A stretch of 64,000 nt of DNA, taken from contig JBGTMQ010000020.1 in NCBI GenBank assembly GCA_041743505.1, forward strand, positions 81,099 to 145,098, written 5' to 3'. This document shows positions 16,860-36,522 of the stretch, piece by piece. The stretch comes from Candidatus Saccharimonadia bacterium (GTDB lineage Bacteria > Patescibacteriota > Saccharimonadia > UBA4664). A program made the translations under genes and the position numbers. Every line of letters begins with the position of its first letter. Position 1 is the stretch's first letter. Under the pieces are notes generated by a model. The model did not search any database, had not been told where the DNA came from, and worked only from the letters and a program-made list of their open reading frames with translations.

Positions 16860-19094
16860 TTGATTGTGCATCCCTTACTCTCAGATCTCAATGAACCCCA
16901 ACGCCTAGCCGCCGAAACTACCGACGGCCCGGTCCTCATTCTAGCCGGCGCCGGCTCGGGCAAAACCAAGGCCCTAACCCATCGCATCGCCTACCTGGTG
17001 GCCGAAAAACACGTCCGGCCGCTCAACATCCTGGCTGTCACCTTCACCAACAAAGCCGCCGGCGAAATGCGCGGCCGCGTCCTCTCACTCCTCGGCCTCG
17101 ACTCAACCAACCGCTCCTATTTCCCCTACATCGGCACCTTCCACTCTGTATCTCTGCGCCTACTCCGCCGCGAAGCCACCGGCATCGGCCTACCCTCTAA
17201 CTTCCTCATCTTTGATGCGGCCGACTCCCAGTCCGCGATCAAACGCGCTATGCGCCAAGCCAATATCGATGAAAAACAATTTACCCCCAACCTCATCCAT
17301 AACCTTATCTCCAGTGCCAAGAACGAACTGGTCGACGCCGCTCAATATGCCAAATTAGCCCAAGGTAAAGCCCAGGATGCGGCCGCCAAAGTCTACCCCG
17401 TTTACCAAGCCATTCTCAAGGACGCCGGCGCCCTCGACTTTGACGATCTCATCTTCCAAACCGTCCGCATGTTCCGCAAATACCCGGACATACTGGCCAA
17501 ATACCAGCAACAATTCGCCTACATCATGGTCGACGAGTACCAGGACACCAACCACGCCCAATACCAACTCACCAAACTCCTGGCCTCAGGCCATCGCAAC
17601 CTCTGCGTCGTGGGGGACGACTGGCAGAGTATTTATTCCTGGCGCGGCGCTAACTTCCAAAACATCCTCGATTTTGAGAAAGACTACCCCGAAGCTCAAA
17701 TCGTTAAATTAGAACAAAATTACCGCTCAACCCGCAACATCCTCGATGCCGCTCACGCCATCATCGCCAAAAACCGCGTCCGCTCCGACAAAAAGCTCTG
17801 GACCGAAGCGGCTGAAGGTATGGGCATCGGCACCGTCAATGTCTACAACGAAGTCCAAGAAGGGGAGTGGATTGTCCGCCAAATCCAGGAGCTAGCTGTC
17901 ACCGACAAACGCGAGCTCTACGATTTTGCCGTCCTCTACCGGACCAACGCCCAGTCCCGCTCTCTAGAAGAGGCTTTTTTGCGCTACAACCTGCCGTACA
18001 AAATTGTCGGCGGCACCCGGTTCTACGAGCGCCGCGAAATTAAGGACGCCCTGGCCTACCTGCGCTTCGTCTACCAACCCGACGATGTCGTTAGCTTCGG
18101 CCGCATCATCAACCTACCACCCCGGGGCCTCGGCGACGTCAGCTTGGCCCGGCTCGAACAATGGCAGCGCGCCCAAGGCCTCGGCCTCATGGCCGCCTTC
18201 CGCCGCGCAGGCGATGCTCCCGGCCTCCAAACCCGGGCCGTCAACGCCCTCAAACAATTCGCCCTGCTCATCGACGGCCTCCGCGCCGAAGCCACCAAAC
18301 TCCCAGCCGGCCCGCTCCTCGATCTCATCCTCAAACGCTCCGGCTACCTCCAATACCTTGATGACGGCTCCGTCACGGCCGCCGACCGCATCGAAAACGT
18401 CAAGGAGCTCCTCAGCGTGGCCGAAACCTACAACGAGCTCACCCTTGAAGGTTTTCTCGAAGAAATCGCCCTCATCTCCGACATCGACAACTACTCGCAA
18501 GAATCCAACGCCGTCACTCTCATGACCCTCCACGCCGCCAAAGGCCTGGAGTTCCCGGTGGTCTTCATCCCCGGCATGGAAGAAGGTATTTTCCCGCACT
18601 CCCGCTCCCTGTTCGACGGTGACCAAATGGAAGAAGAGCGCCGCCTCTGCTACGTCGGCATGACCCGGGCCAAAGAGCGCCTGTTCCTCATTTATGCCAA
18701 CTCACGCCTGCTCTACGGTGGCACTAACCACAACCCACCCTCGCGCTTCATCACCGAAATTCCGCCCGGCCTGCAATCCGAAGGCAGCGAGTGGGGTACG
18801 GCCGCCCGGGCCGGCCGCTACGGCGGGGGAGCAGCGCCCCATGGCGCCGGCGCCGGCAGCTGGAATGTACCCACTATGCCCGCCGCCGACCTGGCTGCCA
18901 CCGCCCGCGAAGCCGACCGCCATCGCGAAACCATGCTTGGCCTTGACCTCAAACCCGGCGACCGCATCGAGCACACCAAGTTCGGTGAAGGCATCGTCTC
19001 CGACATTAACGGCGACGAAGTCACGGCCGCTTTCACCGGCGTTGGCGCCAAACGCCTATCTCTCTCCTTCGCCCCCATCCGCAAACTTGATTAG
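16860..19094 (+). CDS. uvrD: ATP-dependent DNA helicase UvrD/PcrA family
   Basis: Walker A AGAGSGKT plus helicase motifs I-VI across the full length; 744 aa. Non-ATG start (TTG 16860 or GTG 16866). Confidence 0.9.
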   Translation: MIVHPLLSDLNEPQRLAAETTDGPVLILAGAGSGKTKALTHRIAYLVAEKHVRPLNILAVTFTNKAAGEMRGRVLSLLGLDSTNRSYFPYIGTFHSVSLRLLRREATGIGLPSNFLIFDAADSQSAIKRAMRQANIDEKQFTPNLIHNLISSAKNELVDAAQYAKLAQGKAQDAAAKVYPVYQAILKDAGALDFDDLIFQTVRMFRKYPDILAKYQQQFAYIMVDEYQDTNHAQYQLTKLLASGHRNLCVVGDDWQSIYSWRGANFQNILDFEKDYPEAQIVKLEQNYRSTRNILDAAHAIIAKNRVRSDKKLWTEAAEGMGIGTVNVYNEVQEGEWIVRQIQELAVTDKRELYDFAVLYRTNAQSRSLEEAFLRYNLPYKIVGGTRFYERREIKDALAYLRFVYQPDDVVSFGRIINLPPRGLGDVSLARLEQWQRAQGLGLMAAFRRAGDAPGLQTRAVNALKQFALLIDGLRAEATKLPAGPLLDLILKRSGYLQYLDDGSVTAADRIENVKELLSVAETYNELTLEGFLEEIALISDIDNYSQESNAVTLMTLHAAKGLEFPVVFIPGMEEGIFPHSRSLFDGDQMEEERRLCYVGMTRAKERLFLIYANSRLLYGGTNHNPPSRFITEIPPGLQSEGSEWGTAARAGRYGGGAAPHGAGAGSWNVPTMPAADLAATAREADRHRETMLGLDLKPGDRIEHTKFGEGIVSDINGDEVTAAFTGVGAKRLSLSFAPIRKLD
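19073..19092 (+). repeat. 20-bp exact direct repeat CCCCATCCGCAAACTTGATT (copy 1, in-frame 3' end of uvrD)
   Basis: Identical 20-mer at 22775-22794, where it forms the 3' end of the C39-like peptidase gene. Both genes end with the peptide PIRKLD. Confidence 0.8.
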
Positions 19095-19114
19095 ACCACT
19101 TAACTGGAATTCAC

Positions 19115-19669
19115 ATGCCTAACATTGAACTCGAATATCGCGCCCTCGTCAACGAGGCAGAATATCACAAGCTCATAGCCTTCCTCGATGGCAACGCCAC
19201 AGATCTCGGCGAGGATGACAAAAATGTTTTCTTCTTTATTCTTCCCGGCAAGCTCTTAAAAGTCGTTGATAACCAGTCGACCAACTCGGCCAAAATTGTC
19301 CTGAAGCTCAATCGCATTGGCCAAGGCAGTGACTTCGAAGAAATTGAAATACCCATTGACCCGGATCAAGTCGAAAAATCCGTCCACATGTTTAAATCAC
19401 TTGGCTTTACCGAAGTACAGCAATCATTCCAAAAACGTCACAATTATAAATTTAAAGGTGTGGAGCTAGCGGTAAAATACAGCGAAAATTGGCAATATCA
19501 TGTCGAGTTGGAGATTCTTCTCTCCGACCGCGAGCAGCAGGCTGAGGCCGAAAAGCGAATTCATGCCGTGGCCGCAGAACTGGGGTTAAAGATTATGACG
19601 GACGATGAACTCAAAGAACTTACTGCCAAAATCGACGCGGAGCACCGTTCTAAGACTGATCACATTTAA
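19115..19669 (+). CDS. CYTH-domain protein (CyaB / thiamine-triphosphatase-like)
   Basis: N-terminal IELEYRAL pattern and overall acidic beta-barrel-like profile resemble CYTH. Moderate confidence from sequence alone. Confidence 0.5.
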   Translation: MPNIELEYRALVNEAEYHKLIAFLDGNATDLGEDDKNVFFFILPGKLLKVVDNQSTNSAKIVLKLNRIGQGSDFEEIEIPIDPDQVEKSVHMFKSLGFTEVQQSFQKRHNYKFKGVELAVKYSENWQYHVELEILLSDREQQAEAEKRIHAVAAELGLKIMTDDELKELTAKIDAEHRSKTDHI

Positions 19670-19676
19670 GCTTATG

Positions 19677-19691
19677 TTTGCAATTTGCAAA
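19677..19691. promoter_or_regulatory. 15-bp palindrome TTTGCAA-t-TTGCAAA
   Basis: Perfect 7-bp arms, located just after the CYTH gene stop and about 130 bp upstream of the next CDS. Confidence 0.3.
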
Positions 19692-19820
19692 TAGCTGCTT
19701 ATACTGTGGAATAGCTGAAAGCCCCTCTTTCGTTCAGCATACCTATTCGGGCACCATTGACATCCAACTCGGGCTACACAGACCTCAATCCCAAAACCTA
19801 CGGAAGATTGGAATTGACCA

Positions 19821-20393
19821 ATGTCTGTTTTGGCTTTCCCGCAAGTGCAAGCTTCACCCATGTTTGACAACCTGAACCTGCTTGGTCGCCGTGCAGTCAA
19901 GCTCGTGCTGACAGTTGCGACTGTCTTCGCAATGGTACTCGGTCTTAGTCTCACCAGTAGTGCCGGTACCGCTAACGCTGCGACCGGCGATAGTGCTCCG
20001 GTCCATTTTGGACTTGGTCGGGCCTACTGGGGTGAAAATGGCATGGAGATCAGGCTTACTCGTGAGGGTACAGAATTGGCCTACCTAGCCTCTACCGTTG
20101 GCGGAGGAGCAGGAATTAAAGGTACACAGCTTGGTGCCGAGGCCTTGGCAAAGTTTGGTCCGATTATGAGCCATATCATACGATCTGGCGGCATTGATCC
20201 GACCAAAGACGGGGTTAAGGTCGTGGGTGCTGTCGCTGGTGCCACCGGCTTGTGGGCAGCCGAAAAGGTGATGATTCCTGACGGTATGTGCCTCGGAATT
20301 ACTTGGGCCCCTGAGATAGTGGCACCTAGCTCGTACATCTCCTACCCCTCTAACCCGCATCAATCAGCTTCCTGGCTGGAGTCTTGCTCGTAG
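19821..20393 (+). CDS. secreted hypothetical protein
   Basis: Signal-peptide-like segment ending ANA. The real start may be ATG 19860. Confidence 0.45.
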   Translation: MSVLAFPQVQASPMFDNLNLLGRRAVKLVLTVATVFAMVLGLSLTSSAGTANAATGDSAPVHFGLGRAYWGENGMEIRLTREGTELAYLASTVGGGAGIKGTQLGAEALAKFGPIMSHIIRSGGIDPTKDGVKVVGAVAGATGLWAAEKVMIPDGMCLGITWAPEIVAPSSYISYPSNPHQSASWLESCS

Positions 20394-20467
20394 CATGACC
20401 GGTCACCGGCCTGGGGTATGTCTCGTCGAGACGCACCCCAGGCCCACAAAACTGTTATTATTCACGT

Positions 20468-20866
20468 ATGAAACCATCAGTATCAAATTTTAAGATTCAG
20501 CTTGCTTGGCACCACTTCCTTTACTGGCTCTTTTGGATAACACTGGGAGCAGCAGCTACCGGCGATGCAATTTTGGGAGGCGGCTCTTTTGCGGTTGTGG
20601 CCTATCTTTTCAGAGATTGGCGTAACGCCCCGTACAAAGATCCGGTCGCTGATGATGCCGGACCAGGCAAGCGATTGATGACAGTAGTGTATTATCTTTT
20701 GGGCTGCGTGGCTATTCGCCTTGCTCTATTTCTCCTACAAGACAAGCCACTGTCTACAGATATATGGTGGTTCGCGGTGTTTGCTGCGGCGGCTACCACG
20801 TTATACTTCACCAAGCCCCTACCTAGACCGGAGGTGCAGCAGCAAAAAGATAGCAAAGCAACTTAA
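20468..20866 (+). CDS. small membrane protein, paralog 1 of a tandem pair
   Basis: 4 TM helices. Shares QLAW..FL.WL, W(R)D.PY and C-terminal FTKPLPRP with the next CDS. Confidence 0.5.
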   Translation: MKPSVSNFKIQLAWHHFLYWLFWITLGAAATGDAILGGGSFAVVAYLFRDWRNAPYKDPVADDAGPGKRLMTVVYYLLGCVAIRLALFLLQDKPLSTDIWWFAVFAAAATTLYFTKPLPRPEVQQQKDSKAT

Positions 20867-20877
20867 GGGTACGGGCA

Positions 20878-21264
20878 ATGAGAATACTCAGGCAACTTTT
20901 ATGGCTTCAACTTGCATGGAGGTATTTCCTTGCCTGGCTCTTGCCGGCAACTTTTTGGACTGCGCTTACTGATAGTGTAATCGTGGGAGCTGGTCTAGGA
21001 ATAGTCTTTTTCTTCATTGGTAGCTGGCGCGATACGCCATACGAAGGCATCCTCGGCAAAAGCTCCAGAAGTAGCAGTAGCCAATGGAGGATTGCAATAT
21101 TCTTCATCTCAGCATGGCTCATCATTTATTTAATTCATGCTCTTATCGATCCTAAGGACTCTCATGTCAGCGTAATTTGGTTTGTCATATTTGTTATCAC
21201 CACAATCGTTGCTAGCTTTACGAAACCTCTACCGAGGCCAGCCGGGGCCAAACCCCAAGCATAG
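20878..21264 (+). CDS. small membrane protein, paralog 2 of a tandem pair
   Basis: Same motifs as CDS 20468-20866. Confidence 0.5.
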   Translation: MRILRQLLWLQLAWRYFLAWLLPATFWTALTDSVIVGAGLGIVFFFIGSWRDTPYEGILGKSSRSSSSQWRIAIFFISAWLIIYLIHALIDPKDSHVSVIWFVIFVITTIVASFTKPLPRPAGAKPQA

Positions 21265-21317
21265 CCTGTGTAAGTCAAGGTGTGGTGAGCGAGTCCAGCC
21301 TTCCAACAACTGTCACT

Positions 21318-21797
21318 ATGAACAATACCGTCTCAGTAAAAAAACTAGCAAATGGACTTACCATTGTAAGCCCCAAAACTCATCCCCACGTTGAGTCAAT
21401 CTACCTTGAACTGGTTGTCAGGGTTGGCGCACGAAATGATTCAGATGAGTTTTTTGGCTTGGCCCATTTCGTTGAGCATGTGGTAGCGGAAATCGCCGAA
21501 GCTAGCATTCGGCGTCATGAATGGATCAATGACTATATGCTGGACACCTTTGATGCCGTGATCGATCAGGAGAAGACAACCTATTATGTCGGGGTAGCAA
21601 AAAATGATTCAGAGCGAGCCCTCCAGCTGGTCCTATCGGTTCTGCAATCTCCCGTTGTCACGCCAGAAATTATAGAGCGGAACAAAGAAATCGTAATAGA
21701 AGAATTACTCGAAGACCTTGACAGTGATACAACTCAAGCCACCCGGTACTTCGCATCTCAATATCACAAGGACAATACCCTGGGGAGCTACTATTAA
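21318..21797 (+). CDS. M16 (pitrilysin/insulinase) peptidase N-terminal domain only; truncated, possible pseudogene
   Basis: HFVEH (HxxEH zinc motif) and the KKLANGLTIV start are typical of M16. The ORF stops after about 159 aa, whereas M16 enzymes are about 420 aa. No continuation in other frames. Confidence 0.5.
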   Translation: MNNTVSVKKLANGLTIVSPKTHPHVESIYLELVVRVGARNDSDEFFGLAHFVEHVVAEIAEASIRRHEWINDYMLDTFDAVIDQEKTTYYVGVAKNDSERALQLVLSVLQSPVVTPEIIERNKEIVIEELLEDLDSDTTQATRYFASQYHKDNTLGSYY

Positions 21798-21862
21798 GAA
21801 TGCTGCTTCAAGACCCACCGTCCACTCCGCGCAGGCGTATGGCAGCCATCTTCGATGTAACC

Positions 21863-21902
21863 GCCCCATTGGCAACTCCATCGCCAGTGGGGCTTTGTCA
21901 TG
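21863..21902 (+). repeat. 40-bp hairpin element, copy 1 (CCCCATTGGC-n9-GCCAGTGGGG + CTTTGTCATG)
   Basis: 37/40 identical to 24222-24261. The stem has a T.G pair that is a wobble only on the + strand RNA. Confidence 0.7.
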
Positions 21903-21970
21903 ACCCGACTCATCCGTAAACTTGCTTGGTTTAAGTGCCTCTCTAAGCGGACTTCCCTCCAGTCAAATAC

Positions 21971-22016
21971 CCCACTATGTAGTTAAACTACGTACTAAGT
22001 TTGACTACATAGTGGG
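21971..22016. promoter_or_regulatory. perfect 13-bp inverted repeat CCCACTATGTAGT-n20-ACTACATAGTGGG
   Basis: Ends 9 nt before the ATG of the C39-like peptidase. Could be an operator or a 5'-UTR hairpin. Confidence 0.45.
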
Positions 22017-22025
22017 CCAACACAT

Positions 22026-22796
22026 ATGACTTCTCGGTCTGATACACTAAAGTTCATGCAGCCAATCGAATACCAAATCAAGCCCATCAAGCAAAACGCC
22101 AGTGAATGTATGCAAACCGCTGCCACGCAGGTCATTTCCCACTATGACCCATCCATAACCGTCCAAAGAGTTATCGAAGAAGTACCAGTTTATGTTGAAA
22201 ATGGCAACAAAATTGGCACCTCTCAAGGGCATATGGCCGCCTACTTTGCGCGGGCGGGTTACAAAACAACCATGTATATTTTTGATGTCGAGTTGTTTGA
22301 CCGGAGCTGGGTAGACCTAAATCCTCATGAAGTTCTAGCCGGCTTACGGGAGCGTCAGAAGTATATTCCAGCTAATTCATGGCTAGCCAAATACCATCAT
22401 ATCCTCGTCGATGGTTTTGAATTATATGTAAAAGAAGGTGGCAATTTCGCCTTCCCGCAGCTAAGCGCGAAATTATTACGAGATTTACTCGACAGCGGCC
22501 CGTACCTCATCCTATTGAGCTCAACCTACCTTAACCAGGCAGCAAAACAACGCTACAATCAAGAGTCCGACACGTTTGTAGCTGACCCCATTCAGGGACG
22601 TTCGCTTACCCATGCCGTAACCTGTGCGGGCTACAAGGACGGCCAGTTTCTTATCGTCGATCCAGACCCACCTCGAGACACTAGTCCACACCGGTGGATA
22701 GCACAAGAACACCTCATCGCCTCAATTATGGTTGCCCAAACAGAATCAGATAATTACTTGATCAAAATAGACAACCCCATCCGCAAACTTGATTGA
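22026..22796 (+). CDS. C39-like / papain-fold cysteine peptidase domain protein
   Basis: QNASECMQTAATQVISHY (Cys box) and THAVTCAGYKDGQFLIVDP (His box) match the Peptidase_C39_2-like pattern. Ends with the repeated PIRKLD tail. Confidence 0.55.
   Translation: MTSRSDTLKFMQPIEYQIKPIKQNASECMQTAATQVISHYDPSITVQRVIEEVPVYVENGNKIGTSQGHMAAYFARAGYKTTMYIFDVELFDRSWVDLNPHEVLAGLRERQKYIPANSWLAKYHHILVDGFELYVKEGGNFAFPQLSAKLLRDLLDSGPYLILLSSTYLNQAAKQRYNQESDTFVADPIQGRSLTHAVTCAGYKDGQFLIVDPDPPRDTSPHRWIAQEHLIASIMVAQTESDNYLIKIDNPIRKLD
22775..22794 (+). repeat. 20-bp exact direct repeat CCCCATCCGCAAACTTGATT (copy 2)
   Basis: See copy 1 at 19073-19092. Confidence 0.8.
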
Positions 22797-22859
22797 CGGC
22801 TCGAACCATCGTATAGTACGTAATCCCAGGACAACGATCTCGTATCGGAGGCTCTTGCC

Positions 22860-23378
22860 ATGCGTCATTTCGTCTCTGGCAGCACCTATCGTGAGCTAAT
22901 GCGGCGACTCGGCCGGCTTCAGTCCGAACTTGCCAATCCCGACGGCAGCCGCATCGATCCCGTATTACTCATCCAGACTTTGGACGTCTTGTTATCGGGC
23001 AAAGTATTCGAGCTAACAATTACTCCTAAGCCGGTAGAGGATGAATTTCTTTACCTGAGCTTACCCCCGGAAGTCTTAACGACCGACATTCAGATGCTGG
23101 GGCTCAAAACCACTACTTACAATATCCTGAAGCGTCACGGCATTGATACTATTGAGGATTTGCTTGAGCGGTCGGCGGCCGATTTACTAGATATAGCCTA
23201 TTTCGGCCCCAGGCTGCTGGAGGAGCTAAACCGCGCGCTTGCTGTACATGGCTGGCATCTATCCCGTCACGACGATCCTGATCTGGCGCCGCCGTCAGGC
23301 GACGAGTGGATAACATTTAACCGCTATAGCGGCGCACCGCGACGCGTTCTCAAGAGTCGTCTGCACAGCCGGAAGTAA
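22860..23378 (+). CDS. RpoA alpha-CTD-like (HhH) domain protein, paralog 1
   Basis: LYLSLPPEVLTTDIQMLGLKTTTYNILKRHGIDTIEDLLERSAADLLDIAYFGPRLLEELNRAL aligns with the RNA polymerase alpha C-terminal domain pattern L.LS.R..N.L....I.T..DL......EL......G..S..E. Followed by GWHLSRH...APPSGDEW. CGGAGG SD upstream. Confidence 0.6.
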   Translation: MRHFVSGSTYRELMRRLGRLQSELANPDGSRIDPVLLIQTLDVLLSGKVFELTITPKPVEDEFLYLSLPPEVLTTDIQMLGLKTTTYNILKRHGIDTIEDLLERSAADLLDIAYFGPRLLEELNRALAVHGWHLSRHDDPDLAPPSGDEWITFNRYSGAPRRVLKSRLHSRK

Positions 23379-23398
23379 TTCACCGAGAGGACACGCCA

Positions 23399-24181
23399 GT
23401 GGCCCGCTATGCTACCGCTACACCCAACCAGCGGCTTGAAGCGAGGCGTCTATGGATCGAAATCTATGCCGAGCTAACTAACCCTCAGGGCAGCTCACTC
23501 GATCCTCAGATGGTTCTCGAGGCGCTACAGTCGATTCAGTCACTGATTCGTTCAAGCGATAACCATGAGTCAGCCAAGTATCTTGACAAGGCCGCAGCTG
23601 AGGTCGGGCCGCTCGAAAATCCTGACGATTTTCTTTACTTAACCCTGCCCCGCGAGGTTCTCGATCAACCAGTCAACACGCTTAAGCTAACGGAGCGGCC
23701 ACTCAATTGCTTGCACCGGGAGAATATTAGTACCGTCGATGACCTTCTGCAGCGTTCTGGGCCCGAGCTGTTAGAGATACGAAACTTTGGAGCAGTATCT
23801 TTAAGAGAAGTAACAACCCGGCTTGATGAACGGGGTTGGCACTTGTCCACCCATGGCCAGGGATTAGCTCCTCCGCCGGGTGACCAGTGGGTTAAGTACC
23901 AAGACTGGCTCTTTCTCCGCAGCCGTTTCATCCGGCTACCCGTTGATAAGATCCTCCGCTGGAATTCGCAGATCATCGCCTCGCTCAAGGAGCTTGGAAT
24001 TGTAACAGTCGGTCAGTTGGTCTCGTTGACGGACGTCGAAGTGCTACGGCTGCCCTGGGACGAAAAGCCGGCCACCTACGTCTGGAAGTTCGAGAAAATA
24101 ACCGGCTTCGATGCGCTCGAGATAATTAATGCGTCACTTCAAGACTGCGGCCTGTCCCTGACCCAAGAAACAGATCGGTAA
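23399..24181 (+). CDS. RpoA alpha-CTD-like domain protein, paralog 2 (two tandem HhH repeats)
   Basis: Same alpha-CTD-like motif and GWHLSTH...APPPGDQW as paralog 1, plus a second degenerate repeat. N-terminus is also paralogous to 22860. GTG start with GAGAGG SD. Confidence 0.6.
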   Translation: MARYATATPNQRLEARRLWIEIYAELTNPQGSSLDPQMVLEALQSIQSLIRSSDNHESAKYLDKAAAEVGPLENPDDFLYLTLPREVLDQPVNTLKLTERPLNCLHRENISTVDDLLQRSGPELLEIRNFGAVSLREVTTRLDERGWHLSTHGQGLAPPPGDQWVKYQDWLFLRSRFIRLPVDKILRWNSQIIASLKELGIVTVGQLVSLTDVEVLRLPWDEKPATYVWKFEKITGFDALEIINASLQDCGLSLTQETDR

Positions 24182-24186
24182 GTCTA

Positions 24187-24221
24187 AGGTCCGGGATTCT
24201 TTCCCGGACCTTATTTTTTTT
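24187..24221 (+). terminator. rho-independent terminator (aggtccggg-attcttt-cccggacct + T8)
   Basis: Perfect 9-bp stem and long T-tract, immediately after CDS 23399-24181. Confidence 0.8.
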
Positions 24222-24261
24222 GCCCCATTGGCAACCCCACCGCCAGTGGGGCTCTGTCATG
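24222..24261 (+). repeat. 40-bp hairpin element, copy 2
   Basis: See 21863-21902. Directly follows the terminator and lies 45 nt upstream of CDS 24306. Confidence 0.7.
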
Positions 24262-24305
24262 CCAAACTCAAATTAAGGCTCTGAGCATCTGTTATCATTA
24301 GCACA

Positions 24306-25157
24306 ATGACTAGAGAACAATCCCCTCAAGATCCCGGTGCCGAACAGGGTATGTTCGCCGACACCCGTAAAGCCACCGAGGAGCTTAGGCAGCTAGCAGA
24401 ACAAGGCATTGAAGCCAGGCGGCAGATAGGCCGCCTTACCGAGCAGGATGAGGTCGAAATCGCCACCCACACCAGGCAAGCCAGACAAGAGCTAACCGGG
24501 GAAAGTGAGCGCGACATAACATTAAAGTCTGCAACCGAGATTGCGGATAAGCTCAAAGAAAAAGATAGTGAGCTATCAGATAGCATTTATGAAGCCCTGG
24601 CCGAGACGTACGGTACGGCAGGCGATGTAGACCGCGGGCTTGCCACCATCGATCAGATCGAGGACCATGTTTCGCGCATCGAGGGCCTAATCCGCCTGGC
24701 CAAAGTCACCCGGTCGGACCGCGTCCACGATGAAATCAAGCACTCTGCGATGAACGAAGAGGGTAAAGCCGTTAACATTGATGTCGCGAAGAAGGTCTAT
24801 CTGAAGCTCCGGGTTGAAGAAAATCTCGCCGAAAGAGCTGACTCATTTGCAATGTTAGTTGGCGACGCCGCCGAGAAAGACCCCAACTACGCCGACGTCG
24901 CAAATGCCCGGGAAGTGGTAGAGCGAGAGACCAGGGTGCCACCTAAGGCACCCAGTACCAGTCTCGAAACGCAGGCTAGAATACGCGCCCAGGCTGCCCA
25001 CCGTACTACCGGCCTTGCAGCCCTCGACGAGTATCGCGCCCAGGCTGCCCGCCTCGGACCCGGCCGTGCCCAGGACTTGATGTTTACGGTCTATACGCTA
25101 GCCACCTTAGAGCTCGCCAGGAAGCAGCATCCCGAGACAGACAAGGCCGCAGCTTAA
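24306..25157 (+). CDS. hypothetical helical protein, tandem paralog A
   Basis: 283 aa. Shares TEEL.Q, HxRQAR.EL..ESE, YGT.GD, QI..HV.R.EGL.RL and a terminal AAA with the next CDS. The upstream tatcattag motif is also duplicated. Confidence 0.5.
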   Translation: MTREQSPQDPGAEQGMFADTRKATEELRQLAEQGIEARRQIGRLTEQDEVEIATHTRQARQELTGESERDITLKSATEIADKLKEKDSELSDSIYEALAETYGTAGDVDRGLATIDQIEDHVSRIEGLIRLAKVTRSDRVHDEIKHSAMNEEGKAVNIDVAKKVYLKLRVEENLAERADSFAMLVGDAAEKDPNYADVANAREVVERETRVPPKAPSTSLETQARIRAQAAHRTTGLAALDEYRAQAARLGPGRAQDLMFTVYTLATLELARKQHPETDKAAA

Positions 25158-25188
25158 TACCCTGTTCCAGTCTGCTATCATTAGTGGT

Positions 25189-26028
25189 ATGAGCGCAGAA
25201 CACGATATCGGCGGCCGCCACAGACAGGAAAATGATTTTGCTGGTGCCCGCGAAACTACCGAAGAACTAATGCGGCAGATTACTGAAGCCCACGAATTAG
25301 CTGCGCAAAACCAGCCTGCAGCCGACGAGATTGAACTAGCCGGTCACATAAGGCAGGCCCGAATGGAGTTAAATAACGAGAGCGAGGATACCGTCATCCT
25401 GCTATCGGCCAGCGAAACTGCCCGCGACCTTCATGACCGCAGGCTGGCTGATGATGTATATATGTCATTAGCCGGTGCCTATGGTACGCGCGGTGACATC
25501 GCCGGCGGCCTTGATGCCGTCAATCAAATTCAAGAACACGTCTTGCGGCTCGAAGGACTGGTCCGACTATCCGAAATCACGGGCGATGAGTCAGTTAAAC
25601 GTCAGCTCGCCGAAGCGGTCGAAAACAAGGCCGGTCACGCGGTTCACGTCGAGGTAGCCAGAGAAGTATTTTACAAATTTCGAATGGAGGACCGCGACCT
25701 CGATAAAGCCCAGAATTTTTCCAAGCTGGTCGCTAAATCCGCCGAAAATGCATCCAATTACCCTAAAGCTGTCGATACCAACGCGCGGGTAGCCTTGATG
25801 GCCATAATAGAACCCGACTCACCGCAACCCAGCCTTGATGCTCAGGCCAAAACCCTAGTTGACCAAGCAAATCTCACCGCCGACCCCCTCAAATATCTCG
25901 ATCAATACTGGAAACAAGCCCAAGATCAACCACCCGGCCCAGACCAGGAAAAGATGTTGGCAACCTACACCATAGCCACAGTCGAGTTAGCCAACGATGC
26001 GCTACGCCCAGATCAAGCTGCCGCCTAG
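25189..26028 (+). CDS. hypothetical helical protein, tandem paralog B
   Basis: 279 aa paralog of CDS 24306-25157. Confidence 0.5.
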   Translation: MSAEHDIGGRHRQENDFAGARETTEELMRQITEAHELAAQNQPAADEIELAGHIRQARMELNNESEDTVILLSASETARDLHDRRLADDVYMSLAGAYGTRGDIAGGLDAVNQIQEHVLRLEGLVRLSEITGDESVKRQLAEAVENKAGHAVHVEVAREVFYKFRMEDRDLDKAQNFSKLVAKSAENASNYPKAVDTNARVALMAIIEPDSPQPSLDAQAKTLVDQANLTADPLKYLDQYWKQAQDQPPGPDQEKMLATYTIATVELANDALRPDQAAA

Positions 26029-26030
26029 AA

Positions 26031-26059
26031 TTGACTCTAAAGCAAAGATATGCTATAAT
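26031..26059 (+). promoter_or_regulatory. sigma70-like promoter TTGACT-17-TATAAT
   Basis: Consensus-like promoter upstream of small CDS 26145. Confidence 0.5.
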
Positions 26060-26144
26060 TAATAATAGACGTATGCAGTGAGCACTGCTCCCCGCAGCAC
26101 GCACCAACTCGCATAATCCGCCAACCATCGAATGGACGGACACT

Positions 26145-26399
26145 ATGAACGAATACCTCGTCGTACGCGACGGCCAAGGTCGGCCTGTCTCGCGGGAGAT
26201 GCTCGTCGGTCTCGATCCATTTGGCAGTATCCTCGTGCTGACCAATCCGAAAGGCGGTCAAATCGATCTGCCCATAGAGACCGGGCCCAACTGGCAACAC
26301 GACTTCTCCGGCATTACCGGGGATCAAGGCGAACCATTTACGCTCGTCGAGCGCGCCGGCCAGTGGTTCTTGCAAACCCCCCTCCCGCTCAACTCCTGA
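26145..26399 (+). CDS. small hypothetical protein (84 aa)
   Basis: ORF downstream of a good promoter, weak SD. Confidence 0.4.
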   Translation: MNEYLVVRDGQGRPVSREMLVGLDPFGSILVLTNPKGGQIDLPIETGPNWQHDFSGITGDQGEPFTLVERAGQWFLQTPLPLNS

Positions 26400-26522
26400 G
26401 CAAACATCCGGTGCCGGCACTTCCGCTGGCGCCGGATTAATATTTTTGACTCAATGCAATTAAAAATACCCTGGGAACATGCGCGAATGGTTATCGCGTT
26501 GTTCCCAGGATAAACTAGTTAA

Positions 26523-28343
26523 CTAGAATCCGGGCAGATACCTGCCGAGGTGCGGATAGATATACGACCCCAGCTCCCGGTGGTATAGAGTGAGCATCTG
26601 CTCTTTGGTGATAGCATCAGTTCCAGCCCGCACAAACACCACCTGAAGCAGATAGTCACCGGTCAGCACGAGCGTCTTGGCTCCGGACAAGCTGCCTTCG
26701 GGATCGTCGGCGTCAAACTCCCACACCATATCGCCGGCGTCTCGTTGAGCAGGCGTGATGGGTTTGAAAGTAAGCGGCGGCGAGCCGAGCCCATAATGCC
26801 CGACGCACGGCTTTGGAAGATTATCCAAGTAGGCGCGTACGCCTTCCTTCCGGCCAGGGGCAAGCTTGATCAGATGCATGTAAATCTTGCCTATCATCTG
26901 ACCGGGCTCCTCCAAAACATAAACGCCACCGGCCAGCGGAACATCGCCGTATGCGTCCTGTGGCAAGAGAGGCCAATAATCTCCGCATTCATCGGGCAGC
27001 AACAAGTGCCTGCCGATAGTGACCATAGAGCGCTGATCCGCCTGGCCTGGCGGTGGAGGCGGTAGCATTGCCTGTTGCGAGGGCGCCACCTCTAGCACCG
27101 GGGCCGGACGGTGGCAAAAGCCTTCTCTAAGGCCCTTGAAACAAGTTAACATCCGGTTCGCTTGTGCTTGAAGCAGGTACGAATTCGGGTGCGCGCTCCA
27201 CTCCTGGCTCGTCGGGATGACCCGGTTAATCCAGCGCTTTCCGGGCTCCGGGCCGGCGACATCCTCACACATCGTGTGGTCGCCGTCTTGGAGAATATCA
27301 GAGGCATCAACGTATGTTGCACCAACCTCACGAACAGCTTCCTCGGTAATCTTATTTGCCTGATCGGCGATACTGTTGAGCCACTTCATCTTCTCCTTAC
27401 TGATTCTCGCAAGAACACCAAGGCCGCATTCCGCTGGCATCTTCTCGGTAGTCGGAAATGGCCGGGGATAGCCGGACACGAGCAATTGGCCACCCTCGGC
27501 CAGATTTGCCTGCACGGAGCGGTAGGTCGAAACCAGCCTTTTCCTGATATCCGAAGCCTTGTCTTCGATGAGCACATCCCGGTCGTCCGAGCAGTCGACC
27601 CAGAAGAAGTATGGCTTCAAATATCTCGAGTAAATATCTGTGACACAATCCTTGACGATATCAGCAAAACCAATATCGTTGCCGGTCATCGTGATTGTCA
27701 CCAGATTGGCCCGGCGGGTCGTGTCCAGCTTCTTGGGGTGGCCGGTCTTAGAATCGGACGCCCATTGCGGCGGGTTAGCCCGTTCTTCATGCTCACGCTT
27801 ATTGAACGGTCCCCAGGTCTCATCCCAGGATTGTTCGTCCTCAAAATGCTTAGAGGTAGCTCCACTGCATGCACGATGGTCCAAGGTCCAGGCCGGGTTC
27901 TCGGCTTCTAGCGCCTCCCATAGCTTAACCGGATAGGCATTGGCCGACCGGTGGCAGTGGTTGCCCTCGATAGCAGTACCGGTAACGAAATCCTGAAAGT
28001 TCGTACCGCAGCTGTCAGTGACATTATCCGGCGCCCCTTCCCCCGCAGCGAACGAGTCTCCGAGAGCCGCATACACTAGGGTATCCTGGTCGGAGCCAAG
28101 ATTCACGCCAGCTGGGTAGCCCCCGGGCCGCTCACGCGACCCATGTCTTCTCGGCGCCTCCCCAGTTAGATCTTCCAGACCTGGCACAGGTGGGCATACG
28201 CCCAAATGGACAGGACCGGTCGGCATGATCGGCCAGGGTGACCGGTCTGGTTCATCGGCGAAAGCAATTCCCGGGATAGCAAATAGCAAAATACCGGTCA
28301 AGAAAGTAACCAGCACCCTGCGAGCCGTACACAGACTCATCAA
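26523..28343 (-). CDS. secreted SGNH/GDSL-family hydrolase with C-terminal extension
   Basis: Signal peptide (LLFAIPGIAFA), block I GDSFAAGEG, and a later SAHPN (block V-like His). 606 aa. Confidence 0.65.
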   Translation of the reverse strand: MMSLCTARRVLVTFLTGILLFAIPGIAFADEPDRSPWPIMPTGPVHLGVCPPVPGLEDLTGEAPRRHGSRERPGGYPAGVNLGSDQDTLVYAALGDSFAAGEGAPDNVTDSCGTNFQDFVTGTAIEGNHCHRSANAYPVKLWEALEAENPAWTLDHRACSGATSKHFEDEQSWDETWGPFNKREHEERANPPQWASDSKTGHPKKLDTTRRANLVTITMTGNDIGFADIVKDCVTDIYSRYLKPYFFWVDCSDDRDVLIEDKASDIRKRLVSTYRSVQANLAEGGQLLVSGYPRPFPTTEKMPAECGLGVLARISKEKMKWLNSIADQANKITEEAVREVGATYVDASDILQDGDHTMCEDVAGPEPGKRWINRVIPTSQEWSAHPNSYLLQAQANRMLTCFKGLREGFCHRPAPVLEVAPSQQAMLPPPPPGQADQRSMVTIGRHLLLPDECGDYWPLLPQDAYGDVPLAGGVYVLEEPGQMIGKIYMHLIKLAPGRKEGVRAYLDNLPKPCVGHYGLGSPPLTFKPITPAQRDAGDMVWEFDADDPEGSLSGAKTLVLTGDYLLQVVFVRAGTDAITKEQMLTLYHRELGSYIYPHLGRYLPGF

Positions 28344-28588
28344 TATCTCCCCTCACACTCGCTGTGCAGATTCTCAATGAACAAACAAAGCTGGCCAGCA
28401 ACCGGTACAGCTTGCATACGACCTATGCTCGCTAACAAGCAAGGCATAAACCGATCACACTCTAACATAGTATTAACAAAATGTCAACCAAATAACCGGC
28501 AACTCCTTCATCTGTAAAACTTGATTAAGTCCAACGATGCTGGTATAAGAAACGCAGTTCATAGTCTGGTCCGATCGAGGGAGCCGTC

Positions 28589-29173
28589 ATGCCTAATGAT
28601 TTTCTCTTCCTGACGCTACCAACCGACGAGCTTGAACGCCCGCTCAAAACACTGGAACTGCCGACCCGAGCGTATCACTGCCTGATGCGCGAGGAAGATA
28701 TCAGCACCGTAGGGGATTTGCTGGCCTGCTCAGAGTCTGAGCTAATCGACATTCGCATCATGGGGTCTAGTTTGGTTGACCAAGTCAAGATCAAGCTGGC
28801 AAAGCGCGGCTGGCATCTGTCGCCTCACGACCAGAGCACCGAACCGCCGCCGGGGGATTCATGGGTCCAGGTGCCACATGGGCAATACCTAAACAAGCAG
28901 CGCCAGGTCCTCCAGAGCCGGGTGCGTAGAATATCGCTTGATCGCTACAGCTGCCCCTACCCCGGCTACCCTAACACCCCAGTGGATGCTATCCGCTCGG
29001 TCATTAACCTGTCGACGCTCGGTGATCTGGCCGCCCTTACCGAAGTTAAGGTCCGGGCGGCCGTCGAAGAGGCCACCCGTAAGCCTCACTTCGAGCAGTT
29101 CGACATCGCCAAGTCCGTAGACTGGATCAAGCAGAAATTGACCGAAGTCGGGCTGAAATTGGCCCAACCGTAA
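28589..29173 (+). CDS. RpoA alpha-CTD-like domain protein, paralog 3
   Basis: DFLFLTLPTDELERPLKTLELPTRAYHCLMREEDISTVGDLLACSESELIDIRIMGSSL plus GWHLSPH...EPPPGDSW. Second HhH-like repeat. GAGGGA SD. Confidence 0.6.
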   Translation: MPNDFLFLTLPTDELERPLKTLELPTRAYHCLMREEDISTVGDLLACSESELIDIRIMGSSLVDQVKIKLAKRGWHLSPHDQSTEPPPGDSWVQVPHGQYLNKQRQVLQSRVRRISLDRYSCPYPGYPNTPVDAIRSVINLSTLGDLAALTEVKVRAAVEEATRKPHFEQFDIAKSVDWIKQKLTEVGLKLAQP

Positions 29174-29291
29174 CCGGCGCACCAGCCCGCAATAAGGGCC
29201 CGGGAATCAACTCCCCGGGCCCTTTGACATACTCAATCGGTTCTTGGATACTAAATGAGTTCTGCCCGACCCATGGTTTGGAGTAACCGCC

Positions 29292-30425
29292 ATGAAGCTC
29301 CGCAAGTTACTTGAAAGCAAGCTCACCCCGGCGCCCGAAACTAAACCCGATCCGGTAACCGTGCGCACTCTACGCCATACCGGACGCAAACTGGTGCTCA
29401 GAGACCTTTTTGCCACCCTGGTGGTTGAAGTGGGTGGCGAAGACATCGACATCACAGCCCGAGGCAGGACTTCGCGGCTCGCCAAGCTGCAGGTCTCTGA
29501 AAAGAACGATACTGTCACGCTCCGCGGGGTTAAACCCCAGGACGCCCTATCGCTTCACCTCGATAGCACCGGCTTGTTTAATAGCCGCTGGAGCCGCTGG
29601 CTGTTAAGACGGCTCGATGTCGTAGTATTGGCCCCGGAAGATAGCATCGGGCTGACTATTCGCGTGCCTGAAGGCACCGGGCTGGATATCAATGGCGTCG
29701 ACGGCAATATCATGATTGGTGACACCCAGGCCGCCCTAACGCTGGGTGTGGCATACAACCAGATCGCCACTGTCGGTCGCGTAAGTGATGCCGAAATCGA
29801 AGCCGGTTCCAGCTCGCGAGTCACTGTCGCCGGCGTACATGGCAGCCTACACATCGGCGCTGAATACTCAAGTCAGGTGACGGTCCGGGACGGCGATATT
29901 GTCGGTCTCACTGTTAAGAGTGATTCTAGTTCAGTAGTGCACGTACTCGGCCGCATTCACGATGCGGATGTCGGGGCGGCCTATAACAGCTCGGTCAAGC
30001 TGGGTATGGTGTCCGGCCGGCTGGATCTGGCGGGTGACTCTTCCTCCGACCTCACAGTGCTTGGGGGAACGGCCAACCAGTTGGAGGTAAAAGCCGCTTA
30101 CAACAGTGTTGTGAAATACGGCGGCACTGCCCGCGAAGTCACGCTCAAGCTTGACAGCAGCGCCGAAGCCTGGGTCGCCAACGTCACCGCCAGTTTAACG
30201 GTGAACGCCGACTACAACTCGCGCCTGACTATCGGCGATGGTAATAGTGAGGGTGTAATCCCGATAGTCGACATCAGGGCCGGCAGCTCCACCGAAATCA
30301 GGATTCGGGCCGTGGTCCAACGCGGCCGGATTTCCGCTGATTACAACGCCCTGGTGCTGGCCCGTGATTATGGTAACCAGGTGAAGATCCGCCAAGACGA
30401 CTCAGCCCAGGTCGGTACCTTTTAA
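29292..30425 (+). CDS. beta-strand repeat protein (DUF4097 / putative adhesin-like)
   Basis: Many repeated short beta-strand units (V.V.G..G.L.V, AYNS..K) typical of beta-helix / DUF4097-type proteins. 377 aa. Confidence 0.5.
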   Translation: MKLRKLLESKLTPAPETKPDPVTVRTLRHTGRKLVLRDLFATLVVEVGGEDIDITARGRTSRLAKLQVSEKNDTVTLRGVKPQDALSLHLDSTGLFNSRWSRWLLRRLDVVVLAPEDSIGLTIRVPEGTGLDINGVDGNIMIGDTQAALTLGVAYNQIATVGRVSDAEIEAGSSSRVTVAGVHGSLHIGAEYSSQVTVRDGDIVGLTVKSDSSSVVHVLGRIHDADVGAAYNSSVKLGMVSGRLDLAGDSSSDLTVLGGTANQLEVKAAYNSVVKYGGTAREVTLKLDSSAEAWVANVTASLTVNADYNSRLTIGDGNSEGVIPIVDIRAGSSTEIRIRAVVQRGRISADYNALVLARDYGNQVKIRQDDSAQVGTF

Positions 30426-30587: not shown

Positions 30588-31826
30588 TTGTATTTAACGC
30601 GAGAGACTACGATTTTAAGCCACATAATAGGTCCGCTGGCCGCGACTTACCAGAAGCTGACTGCTCAACCCCGCAATTTCCTGGCCATCGGTATCCTCAT
30701 CACCATTGTATTTTTCGGACTATCGTCCGGCCATTTGCCACTCTCACCAACCGCTAGCGCCGATGCGCAGCGCCTAGTATCACTGTACGCTGATGGCCAG
30801 AAACGAGTCTTCGCTACCGAAGCCGGAACGGTTCGTGAGGCCCTGGACAACAGTAATGTTCAGCTGGCCAAGAACGATTTGGTCGAGCCAAGTCTTGAAA
30901 CGGAAATCCCGCAAGGTTTCTTCAACATTAATGTTTATCGCGCTCGGCCGGTGCTGGTGCAAGACGGGTACAAGTCACACTACATCACCAGCGCTTACCA
31001 AAGCCCCCGCCTGCTAGCTGAGGCCGCTGGCCTGCACATCTACCCGGAAGACGGCTACACCACAACCATGATCTCTGAATTTGTCGACAACGCCGCCGTC
31101 GGCATCAAAGTTGAAGTGAAGCGTGCCATGCCCTTGACCATACATGCCGATGGTACCGTTAAGTCCGTGCGCACTCAGTCCAAGACCGTCCGCGAGGCCT
31201 TGGACCAAAGCGGTGTGTCCCTTGGTCTCAAAGATACCGCCTCAGTACCAATGACAGATCCGGTGGTAGCTGGTATGAATGTTGCCATCACCAGGGTGAC
31301 GGATGTCGAAACCACCATCTCCACGCAGTTGCCACGTGGCCTGCAGACCGTCAATGACCCCAATGTGCTCAAGGGCGAGACCCACGTGCGGCAAGAAGGC
31401 TCAGATGGTGAGAAATCGGTCCTCTATCGCATCCACTACCGTGATGGAGTTGAAGTCAGCCGCGAGCAGTTACGCACTGTTAGCCAAACCGCTCCCGTGG
31501 ACCGGGTCGTCATGGTTGGCACCAAGGTCTTGTTTGCCGGTTCGGTTGAGCACTGGCGGCCGATGGTCATAGCCGCGGCCACGCAGTGGGGTCTTGATCC
31601 TAATATGATGATGCGGATAATGTCCTGTGAATCCAAAGGTAATGCCACTAGCGTCAGTCACTTTGTCGTCAACGGCCAGCACCCCACCGGCCTGTTCCAA
31701 TACCTGCCGTCAACCTGGCGCTCCAGCGGTGGCACTGACAGCAATATCCTCGATGGCGCTACTCAAATCCAAATCACCGCCAAAAAAATGGCCACCCAGG
31801 GCACCGGCGCTTGGCAGTGCAAGTAA
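30588..31826 (+). CDS. RpfB-like resuscitation-promoting factor (DUF348 repeats, G5 domain, transglycosylase-like domain)
   Basis: TVREALD repeats (DUF348), G5-like KGETHVRQEGSDGEKSVLYRIHYRDGVEV, and a C-terminal CESKGN...GLFQYLPSTW transglycosylase-like domain. The start is uncertain (TTG 30588, no ATG/GTG upstream of the TM segment). Confidence 0.7.
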   Translation: MYLTRETTILSHIIGPLAATYQKLTAQPRNFLAIGILITIVFFGLSSGHLPLSPTASADAQRLVSLYADGQKRVFATEAGTVREALDNSNVQLAKNDLVEPSLETEIPQGFFNINVYRARPVLVQDGYKSHYITSAYQSPRLLAEAAGLHIYPEDGYTTTMISEFVDNAAVGIKVEVKRAMPLTIHADGTVKSVRTQSKTVREALDQSGVSLGLKDTASVPMTDPVVAGMNVAITRVTDVETTISTQLPRGLQTVNDPNVLKGETHVRQEGSDGEKSVLYRIHYRDGVEVSREQLRTVSQTAPVDRVVMVGTKVLFAGSVEHWRPMVIAAATQWGLDPNMMMRIMSCESKGNATSVSHFVVNGQHPTGLFQYLPSTWRSSGGTDSNILDGATQIQITAKKMATQGTGAWQCK

Positions 31827-33035: not shown

Positions 33036-33064
33036 ATTGCGCCGCACAGGTATAGCCCCCAATC

Positions 33065-33092
33065 TTGTATTTGCGACAAAAAATGCTATCCT
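33065..33092 (+). promoter_or_regulatory. sigma70-like promoter TTGTAT-16-TATCCT (duplicated at 33892)
   Basis: cttgtatttgcgacaaaaaatgctatcctaaag is nearly identical to the promoter of the downstream paralog. AAGGAG SD at 33136-33141. Confidence 0.55.
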
Positions 33093-33146
33093 AAAGCTCT
33101 GAAGCAAGCAGCCGCTTGTTTTCGTTCTTGGTACCAAGGAGCGACT

Positions 33147-33824: not shown

Positions 33825-33842
33825 CAACCCGCCATCACCCAG

Positions 33843-33878
33843 CCGGGCCGTACTCTGCTAAGAGTCCGTCCCGGTTTT
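33843..33878 (+). terminator. rho-independent terminator (ccgggccgtactct-gcta-agagtccgtcccgg + TTTT)
   Basis: Imperfect 14-bp stem followed by a T-tract. Homologous to the terminator after P2. Confidence 0.6.
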
Positions 33879-33891
33879 AAGGTATTATAAC

Positions 33892-33919
33892 TTGTATTTT
33901 TCAGAAAAAATGCTATACT
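33892..33919 (+). promoter_or_regulatory. sigma70-like promoter TTGTAT-16-TATACT (duplicate of 33065)
   Basis: cttgtatttttcagaaaaaatgctatactaagg. Confidence 0.55.
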
Positions 33920-33977
33920 AAGGCACTGGAATAGGCGACCGCCATTTCTTGTCCCTCCTACACGAATAGGATCAAAG

Positions 33978-36497: not shown

Positions 36498-36522
36498 TTC
36501 TTTTGTAGTATATGAGTAGCAA

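Follow-up and report, generated by a model that had tools for sequence, protein, structure and literature searches.

The 11.3 kb that lie between uvrD and an rpfB-like gene in a 64-kb stretch of contig JBGTMQ010000020.1, from a Candidatus Saccharimonadia bacterium, are likely to be a lineage-specific variable slot filled by at least two processes, and not one functional system. The comparison with other genomes makes uvrD and rpfB evident ancestral neighbours. A gene for a protein resembling the carboxy-terminal domain of the RNA polymerase alpha subunit (alpha-CTD) evidently recurs in the slot within a clade of high guanine-plus-cytosine (GC) content, and is duplicated here, with two tandem copies and one dispersed copy. 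A 3.7-kb block of low GC content (block A, 19093–22794, six genes from CYTH to C39-like) was evidently inserted exactly at the stop codon of uvrD, the last 20 bp of which were duplicated. The 64-kb stretch, hereafter the window (the whole of the DNA analysed), was also scanned for repeats and paralogs. The original prediction had described the 11.3 kb as an accessory region that could be an island; the region does interrupt a conserved backbone, but it consists of at least three layers that differ in age and origin.

Gene turnover between uvrD and rpfB

Patescibacteria are generally held to have small, streamlined genomes with conserved synteny. The reduced-genome host that had been foreseen for this DNA agrees with the UvrD comparison, in which the top matches among 185,579 species genomes were metagenome-assembled genomes (MAGs) of Saccharibacteria/Patescibacteria, with identities of only 51–56%. 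The window has a GC content of 56% and the host is an uncultured, unusually GC-rich relative of Saccharibacteria (56–60% GC, as opposed to 39–47% in the three syntenic MAG loci L003, L004 and L005). Conserved synteny with local gene gain has been reported for Saccharibacteria (McLean et al. 2020, PMC7427843), and the same is seen in our window, where the backbone pyk-tpiA-uvrD-rpfB-ksgA is kept at low identity and genes have been gained at discrete points; in contrast to the syntenic Saccharibacteria, however, the host here carries far more inserted material, at several backbone junctions. Indeed, ten backbone genes (pyk, tpiA, uvrD, rpfB, ksgA and five more) are colinear between the window and L003, L004 and L005. 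The rpfB-like gene stands directly 3′ of uvrD, with a gap of 50–240 bp, in these three low-GC Saccharibacteria-like MAGs and also in L018 (Berkelbacteria) and L040 (Daviesbacteria), and since it directly follows uvrD in all of them, the adjacency is ancestral and the 11.3 kb derived. In L051, a weaker match, limited to the G5 domain, follows uvrD. Note that the backbone at 3193–44027 of the window is interrupted at no fewer than four places relative to L003, L004 and L005, namely at 4.6–12.5 kb (which includes pgk), at 13.3–16.9 kb, at the uvrD/rpfB slot and at 31.9–34.8 kb.

Four closer, GC-rich relatives (L083, L084, L085 and L087) were found through the alpha-CTD-like and RpfB proteins, and a scan of Joint Genome Institute metagenomes with RpfB returned a single short locus. 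Their UvrD proteins are 62–71% identical to that of the window (71% for L083) and their RpfB proteins 59–61% (L084, L085 and L087), to be compared with 31–34% for the RpfB proteins of L003–L005. In L083, uvrD is followed after 85 bp by an alpha-CTD homologue. The order in L084 is uvrD, alpha-CTD, seven unrelated small open reading frames (ORFs), AA_kinase, EamA, rpfB, one small ORF and a cvpA-trypsin gene, that in L085 is pyrH, alpha-CTD, a second alpha-CTD and rpfB, and in L087 a MarR-like gene precedes rpfB. A 208-aa protein 3′ of rpfB in L087 was considered as a family member and found unconvincing (hhalign probability 7%). Besides the alpha-CTD genes, none of the slot genes of these four relatives is homologous to the slot genes of the window. 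Because the content of the slot differs in every closer relative, with an alpha-CTD-family gene alone recurring, we regard the slot as a hotspot of gene turnover. Synteny of the whole region was not found conserved in related genomes and the region therefore counts as accessory, as it had been described.

A low-GC block inserted at the uvrD stop codon

Block A has a GC content of 0.484, against 0.565, and the GC content at third codon positions (GC3) of its six genes ranges from 0.46 to 0.53, compared with a window mean of 0.63 (sd 0.086; Mann-Whitney p = 1.6e-4), these being the six consecutive lowest-GC3 genes of the region. Block A thus looks like a recent import. Elsewhere in the window, short ORFs at 36138–36795 and 54476–54751 also display low GC3 (0.50–0.53) and may be further small foreign insertions.

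The two ends of block A are marked by the 20-mer CCCCATCCGCAAACTTGATT, which occurs exactly twice, at 19073 and 22775, where 0 copies are expected (none in 100 shuffles), in agreement with the duplication noticed originally. Both copies are read in frame, at the 3′ ends of uvrD and of the C39-like gene respectively (Table 1), and the sequences outside the 20-mer are unrelated between them. In-frame repeats at both ends, together with unrelated flanks, place the insertion within the last 20 bp of uvrD, which were duplicated while UvrD was left intact. Owing to this duplication, UvrD has retained its C-terminus, and the reading frame of the C39-like ORF now runs on into what was once the end of uvrD. 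The junction predicted for the ancestor, ...CTCTCCTTCGCCCCCATCCGCAAACTTGATTGACGGCTCGAACCATCG..., joins the end of uvrD directly to the flank at 22795. In L083 and L084 (for which UvrD identity is only 62–71%), block A is missing from the interval that separates uvrD from the alpha-CTD gene. A promoter-like site for alpha-CTD-like gene 1 (22789–22817) overlaps the right copy of the 20-mer, which contains its −35 element, TTGATT; TATAGT follows 17 nt further on. In L084, TATAGTAC stands in a comparable position beyond the uvrD stop codon, at about 380–410.

An abrupt GC shift at a short repeat would also be expected if the assembly had joined two organisms at a shared 20-mer. However, both junctions are spanned by contigs from two different sequencing runs (SRR28170470 and SRR28170471) that match the window at 100% identity, the island proteins are also found on a 147-kb NCBI contig, and the repeat is in frame at both ends with unique flanks; a 20-bp repeat is, moreover, shorter than the k-mers that assemblers usually use. 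Since contigs from separate runs are identical, an assembly artefact is excluded and the probability of such a chimera is negligible.

Known islets and integrative elements insert at the 3′ ends of genes or tRNAs with a duplicated repeat like those of attachment (att) sites, and the whole 11.3 kb could be taken for one such integrative island or mobile element, with the 3′ terminus of uvrD as its target: like an att site, the exact 20-bp direct repeat overlaps a housekeeping gene at its 3′ terminus, block A is low in GC and the region is missing from relatives. Nevertheless, the 20-bp repeats flank 3.7 kb only (19073–22794), the remaining 7.6 kb are native in composition (p = 0.10), and the alpha-CTD gene adjoins uvrD in relatives. 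In addition, no integrase, transposase or relaxase domain was found in the island ORFs scanned with Pfam, NCBIfam and PHROGs, and the viral and plasmid searches were negative: nothing significant was returned by PHROGs for the ten proteins scanned, no relatives were found in IMG/VR with the C39-like protein, the CYTH protein or the alpha-CTD profile, and the DNA of block A has no match in INPHARED phages or PLSDB plasmids. An integrative island of this extent is thus very unlikely. A prophage or satellite was likewise rejected on the negative PHROGs, IMG/VR, INPHARED and PLSDB results. Rfam families, tRNA and tmRNA were all lacking from the whole window, so that no tRNA target is present.

Block A taken alone does share several properties with islands at gene 3′ ends, as it lies at a housekeeping stop codon, is bounded by a 20-bp repeat that restores the C-terminus of the target, deviates in GC and GC3, and is missing at this position in L083 and L084. 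It differs from them in being only 3.7 kb long and in having no recombinase, no tRNA and, on reading the sequence, no terminal inverted repeats, dif/Xer-like or attC-like structure at its ends, while a degenerate internal copy of the repeat and a truncated M16 peptidase gene suggest a scrambled history. Because block A carries no recombinase, its entry probably took place by short-homology recombination or by site-specific recombination acting in trans.

Inside block A, the M16 stump ends 66 bp before a hairpin (hp1) beside which the degenerate 20-mer copy is found, and this arrangement suggests an internal junction. The 40-nt hairpin occurs in two copies where 0 are expected, the second (hp2) lying beyond block A, and this duplication, which had already been pointed out, is well established; searches of the window and of 90 other loci gave no further copy of the 20-mer or of the hairpin. 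Upstream of the C39-like gene, the perfect 13-bp inverted repeat that had been reported was confirmed and proved to be part of a longer one of 18/19 bp (arms 21971–21989 and 21998–22016). It is missing upstream of the C39-like homologues and is therefore specific to the window copy.

The C39-like peptidase and the donor of block A

The assignment of the last gene of block A to a C39-like peptidase holds, by a weak C39_2 match and by its fold. Translation probably begins at the ATG at 22056. The AlphaFold model has a mean confidence score (pLDDT) of 93.8, with the C-terminal NPIRKLD as its sole low-confidence part, and was matched by Foldseek to 3erv, to the peptidase domain of ComA and to PCAT1 (E about 1e-4). 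Across 35 sequences, Q23, C28 and H196 are invariant and D212 is nearly so. The papain-like fold and the conserved Gln/Cys/His/Asp residues are therefore those of C39 and C39-like peptidases (ComA, PCAT, 3erv of Bacillus anthracis, PF13529). Unlike ComA and PCAT, the window protein is standalone, without an ABC transporter, has a helical insertion and lies next to no double-glycine substrate, and its family is widespread in Saccharibacteria in unrelated neighbourhoods.

Homologues of the C39-like protein (61 sequences of about 240 aa from Saccharibacteria/Patescibacteria, 56–80% identical to the window copy) all end about seven residues earlier, in ...ESDNYLIKIDK, whereas the window copy continues with NPIRKLD. 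As these last 7 codons are encoded by the 20-bp repeat, the tail is foreign to the family. The window copy is nested within sequences of low-GC (41–45%) Saccharibacteria and is 80% identical to protein P0028, whose best other match is 74%; UvrD, in comparison, reaches at most 56% identity to the reference-genome MAGs. Taken together with the composition of block A, this pattern of similarity points to a transfer from a lower-GC Saccharibacterium, which would be the donor.

Six homologue loci (within L088–L095), on low-GC contigs, each display a different neighbourhood, and no ABC transporter was found with the gene either here or in these six. Block A as a travelling unit was rejected, since none of the six neighbourhoods contains other block A genes or flanking repeats. 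One of the six loci adjoins a gene for a TrwB/VirD4-like coupling protein.

A recurrent family of alpha-CTD-like proteins

The two tandem alpha-CTD-like proteins and the third, dispersed one that had been proposed are supported by Pfam (PF03118) and by BLASTP. The three copies are 36–39% identical (E 1e-20 to 1e-33), protein 3 being 38% identical to protein 2, and such low identities indicate that the duplications are old. Likeness to the RNA polymerase alpha-CTD (PF03118) concerns both sequence and fold: the family profile reaches E 6e-20 against Streptomyces RpoA, and protein 2 was superposed on the E. coli alpha-CTD by Foldseek with a target-normalised template-modelling (TM) score of 0.93 and a root-mean-square deviation of 0.6 A. 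In contrast to RpoA, however, the window family is free-standing (172–284 aa) and without the alpha N-terminal domain, and three copies are present in the window locus; indeed, PF01193 and PF01000, the N-terminal dimerisation/assembly domain of RpoA, were missing from all three copies in the Pfam search, and the NCBIfam rpoA models gave 60 bits against cut-offs of at least 228. The family adds the motifs FLYLxLP, GWHLSxH and PPPGDxW (with G-D-x-W invariant) and a second helical domain, arranged in the order FLYLxLP, alpha-CTD, GWHLSxH, PPPGDxW and second helical domain.

Homologues of protein 2 stand directly after uvrD in L083 and L084, and a family gene stands before rpfB in L085. Since the family recurs in the slot of the relatives examined, it does not represent strain-level cargo; our results identify a small uncharacterised family that is a recurring occupant of the slot in the GC-rich clade. 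A word-seeded search returned five clusters only, whereas an exhaustive profile search of 1.84 billion representatives gave 22 or more members of full length within its 150 best matches, together with very many RpoA and multi-repeat alpha-CTD proteins. Many large proteins with 3–13 tandem alpha-CTD-like repeats were seen in public metagenomes (e.g., P0088, with 12 stretches in 1031 aa), an architecture that is not obviously described.

By eye, copy 2 and protein P0002 keep the equivalents of residues R265, N268, C269 and G296, which we take to be the DNA contacts of the E. coli alpha-CTD in a numbering that was not formally mapped. The alpha-CTD-like proteins are most likely DNA-binding regulators. 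A bolder proposal, that they form a new class of free-standing mimics of the RNA polymerase alpha-CTD and act in trans, has in our opinion only a slim chance of being right. Such mimics might bind UP-element-like DNA or the activators that normally dock on alpha-CTD, or else disturb transcription in an actinobacterial host, a possibility raised because, among solved structures, the alpha-CTD resembles actinobacterial RpoA most. The genes adjoin rpfB as well as uvrD/pcrA, and the tudor domain of UvrD/PcrA is known to bind RNA polymerase. Our literature search on standalone alpha-CTD proteins yielded nothing relevant. If the proposal were true, the triple copy would represent the diversification of a regulatory or effector family.

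Other genes of the region

The coordinates of all features are collected in Table 1. The CYTH protein, the secreted protein, the tandem membrane paralogs and the truncated M16 peptidase of block A were all present as described (Pfam, BLASTP and hydrophobic segments). The CYTH protein carries ELEYR at residues 5–9, an N-terminal motif of the ExExK type with Arg replacing Lys. For the 190-aa protein, no match was obtained in Pfam, NCBIfam, PHROGs or PADLOC. The paralogs memA and memB are 30% identical (E 7e-14 in the all-against-all BLASTP). The M16 fragment has HFVEH, the HxxEH zinc motif, at residue 62; no M16_C domain follows, only 230 bp of non-coding sequence before the next gene. An Arg-Arg pair is found in the n-region of both predicted secreted proteins (GRRAVKL at 19821–20393 and ARRVLV at 26523–28343) and is reminiscent of twin-arginine translocation (Tat) signals.

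Table 1. Genes and sequence elements of the uvrD/rpfB slot and its two anchors, in window coordinates
Feature	Coordinates	Strand	Remarks
uvrD/pcrA, left anchor	16860..19094	+	Pfam UvrD-helicase E 4.5e-88, and PcrA_UvrD tudor domain
20-bp direct repeat, left copy	19073..19092	+	last 20 coding bases of uvrD; encodes UvrD C-terminal PIRKLD, then TAG
CYTH-domain protein	19115..19669	+	PF01928 E 1.7e-8, 34.9 bits against cut-off 23.2; GC3 0.52
190-aa Gly/Ala-rich protein, signal-like N-terminus	19821..20393	+	hydrophobic segment 26–44 after GRRAVKL
memA, small membrane protein	20468..20866	+	one hydrophobic segment above threshold
memB, tandem paralog of memA	20878..21264	+	three to four hydrophobic segments
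Truncated M16 metallopeptidase, N-terminal domain only, 171 aa	21282..21797	+	PF00675 E 6e-14, profile positions 8–135 of 149
Hairpin hp1, 11-bp stem, 9-nt loop, conserved TGTCATG tail	21863..21902	+	folding energy −22.5 kcal/mol
Degenerate third 20-mer copy (16/20)	21908..21927	+	beside hp1
Inverted repeat, 18/19 bp, 8-nt spacer	21971..22016	+	upstream of C39-like gene; −29 kcal/mol
Standalone C39-like (papain-fold) cysteine peptidase	22026..22796	+	PF13529 (C39_2), 27 bits against cut-off 24
20-bp direct repeat, right copy	22775..22794	+	in frame with C39-like ORF as NPIRKLD tail, then TGA
Alpha-CTD-like protein 1, 172 aa	22860..23378	+	PF03118 E 2.7e-10
Alpha-CTD-like protein 2, 260 aa, full family architecture	23399..24181	+	PF03118 E 1.1e-20
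Intrinsic terminator-like hairpin and T8	24185..24213	+	after alpha-CTD-like protein 2
Hairpin hp2, 37/40 identical to hp1	24222..24261	+	directly after terminator, alpha-CTD-2/helA boundary
helA, acidic, 283 aa	24306..25157	+	no library match
helB, acidic, 279 aa, tandem paralog of helA	25189..26028	+	39% identical to helA, E 2.5e-51
84-aa gene	26145..26399	+	called as gene on L001; own promoter-like site and terminator-like hairpin
Secreted SGNH/GDSL hydrolase, 606 aa	26523..28343	-	PF13472 (GDSL_2) E 6.6e-11; signal-like N-terminus
Alpha-CTD-like protein 3, 194 aa, without N-terminal helical region	28589..29173	+	PF03118 E 2.8e-13
377-aa protein, five ~39-aa beta-type repeats	29292..30425	+	SSx and YNS motifs recur at regular spacing
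RpfB-like gene (DUF348-G5-transglycosylase), right anchor	30588..31826	+	Pfam

The content and order of block A (the 190-aa Gly/Ala-rich protein, the membrane paralogs, the M16 peptidase and the C39-like peptidase) would fit a present or former module of the bacteriocin type, with a secreted toxin-like protein, a membrane immunity pair and M16/C39 maturation peptidases. Yet only a 171-aa stump of the M16 peptidase is encoded, the C39-like gene stands alone in six unrelated neighbourhoods without ABC transporter or other block A genes, the 190-aa sequence has no double-glycine leader (by eye, with no formal scan), and no protein matches a known bacteriocin or immunity family, so that a bacteriocin origin appears unlikely.

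Outside block A, helA and helB had no significant match in Pfam, PDB, NCBIfam, PHROGs or PADLOC. All-against-all BLASTP established them, together with memA/memB and the alpha-CTD-like proteins 1/2/3, as the three paralog families of the region that had been postulated, and tblastn of these families revealed no further copy in the 64-kb window. The small protein of the original prediction is most likely the 84-aa ORF, which has an 11/12 promoter-like site at 26031–26059, a terminator-like hairpin at 26406–26437 and no family match. For the secreted SGNH hydrolase, the prediction was correct (Pfam E 7e-11 and a signal-like N-terminus). It displays GDS at residue 95 (the Ser nucleophile), GND at 221 and DGDH at 353, with 13 cysteines, and its best PDB matches are 4hyq, a phospholipase A1 from Streptomyces (E 9e-6, with some 150 residues covered), and 5mal, a Streptomyces lipase. 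The GDS, GND and DxxH blocks, the signal-like N-terminus and the 13 cysteines are shared with these actinobacterial SGNH lipases, from which the window protein differs by its size of 606 aa, by a long stretch inserted into its catalytic domain and by about 240 uncharacterised residues at the C-terminus. The beta-strand repeats announced for the 377-aa protein are indeed present, but the DUF4097-like label was not confirmed, as neither DUF4097 nor any other significant Pfam match was obtained, and no match in NCBIfam, PHROGs or PDB; the only family hint was DUF2807, at E 0.036 and 14 bits against a cut-off of 24. No counterparts of the helA/helB, 84-aa, SGNH and beta-repeat genes were found in the fetched relatives or in curated libraries, no broad homologue search having been made for them. 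With their native composition, these genes may be older lineage-specific additions to the slot.

A role in defence had also been suggested. The variable content between conserved anchors and the high paralog density would be in keeping with an anti-phage defence island, as would the weak resemblance of an alpha-CTD-like stretch to the BREX kinase PglW (E 3e-4 over a 61-residue helix-hairpin-helix segment). However, this resemblance is limited to the shared helix-hairpin-helix motif, the ten proteins compared with PADLOC gave no other match at E up to 0.1, and the Pfam and NCBIfam searches revealed no domain typical of a nuclease, an ATPase, a methylase or a toxin-antitoxin system. As no PADLOC match among the ten proteins was significant, a defence role is without support and a defence island is extremely improbable.

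Neighbouring genes in the window

Between rpfB and ksgA (31866–34742) lie a CvpA-trypsin fusion (MarP-like) and two tandem paralogs with AMIN-like domains, at 33147–33824 and 33978–34742. This block is missing between rpfB and ksgA in L003 and L004, and CvpA-trypsin is also found 3′ of rpfB in L084. The gene directly upstream of uvrD, at 15636–16784, encodes a protein of 382 aa that is very acidic (net charge −47), carries a hydrophobic anchor at its C-terminus and belongs to no Pfam family. Two convergent pyrH-like (amino-acid kinase) genes were seen at 49942–50667 (+) and 50726–51517 (−). A pyrH-like gene is found within the uvrD/rpfB slot or next to it in L084 and L085, a sign that rearrangement has taken place in the clade.

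Discussion

That the 11.3 kb are a variable slot with several layers, the reading we favour, has to be weighed against a number of points. Exact copies of the island proteins are confined to a single 147-kb MAG contig at NCBI and two Logan run assemblies, and all of them are singletons at 90% identity, so that one population of the organism is represented. Large-scale homologue searches covered the C39-like gene and the alpha-CTD-like family only, the comparison of the remaining island genes being confined to the fetched loci and curated libraries. The helA/helB, 84-aa, 190-aa and 377-aa proteins are without informative homologues. Block A may itself be composite, because the six closest C39-like neighbourhoods contain no other block A genes, and neither the degenerate third 20-mer nor the duplicated hairpin is accounted for by a single insertion event. 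Finally, the donor of block A and the direction of its transfer are read from composition and from the similarity pattern of one gene, in an unrooted comparison.

Members of this phylum are known for an epibiotic life on other bacteria (PMC7427843). The products of the slot, taken as a set, would act at or beyond the envelope, as they include a lipase/phospholipase-like enzyme, secreted and membrane proteins and a cysteine peptidase. Such a set appears to fit an accessory repertoire for the surface and for nutrient scavenging in an epibiont, rather than a module for defence or mobility. An envelope or host-interaction role is therefore plausible as far as gene content can tell; host association is suggested by the gene products, of which two are secreted, two are membrane proteins and one is a hydrolase with a resemblance to phospholipase A1. 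Surface interaction combined with scavenging of lipids and peptides would be the most economical interpretation.

Conclusions

Current concepts are left unchanged by our findings, which add a fresh example of a known phenomenon and are of use as a description and for the candidates that they supply. The locus shows how a small, streamlined and syntenic genome still gains genes: a recombinase-free import of 3.7 kb was caught with its 20-bp target duplication intact, and it created a chimeric C-terminus on a conserved peptidase. Two uncharacterised families, the standalone C39-like peptidase and the free-standing alpha-CTD-like proteins, merit study in epibiotic bacteria.

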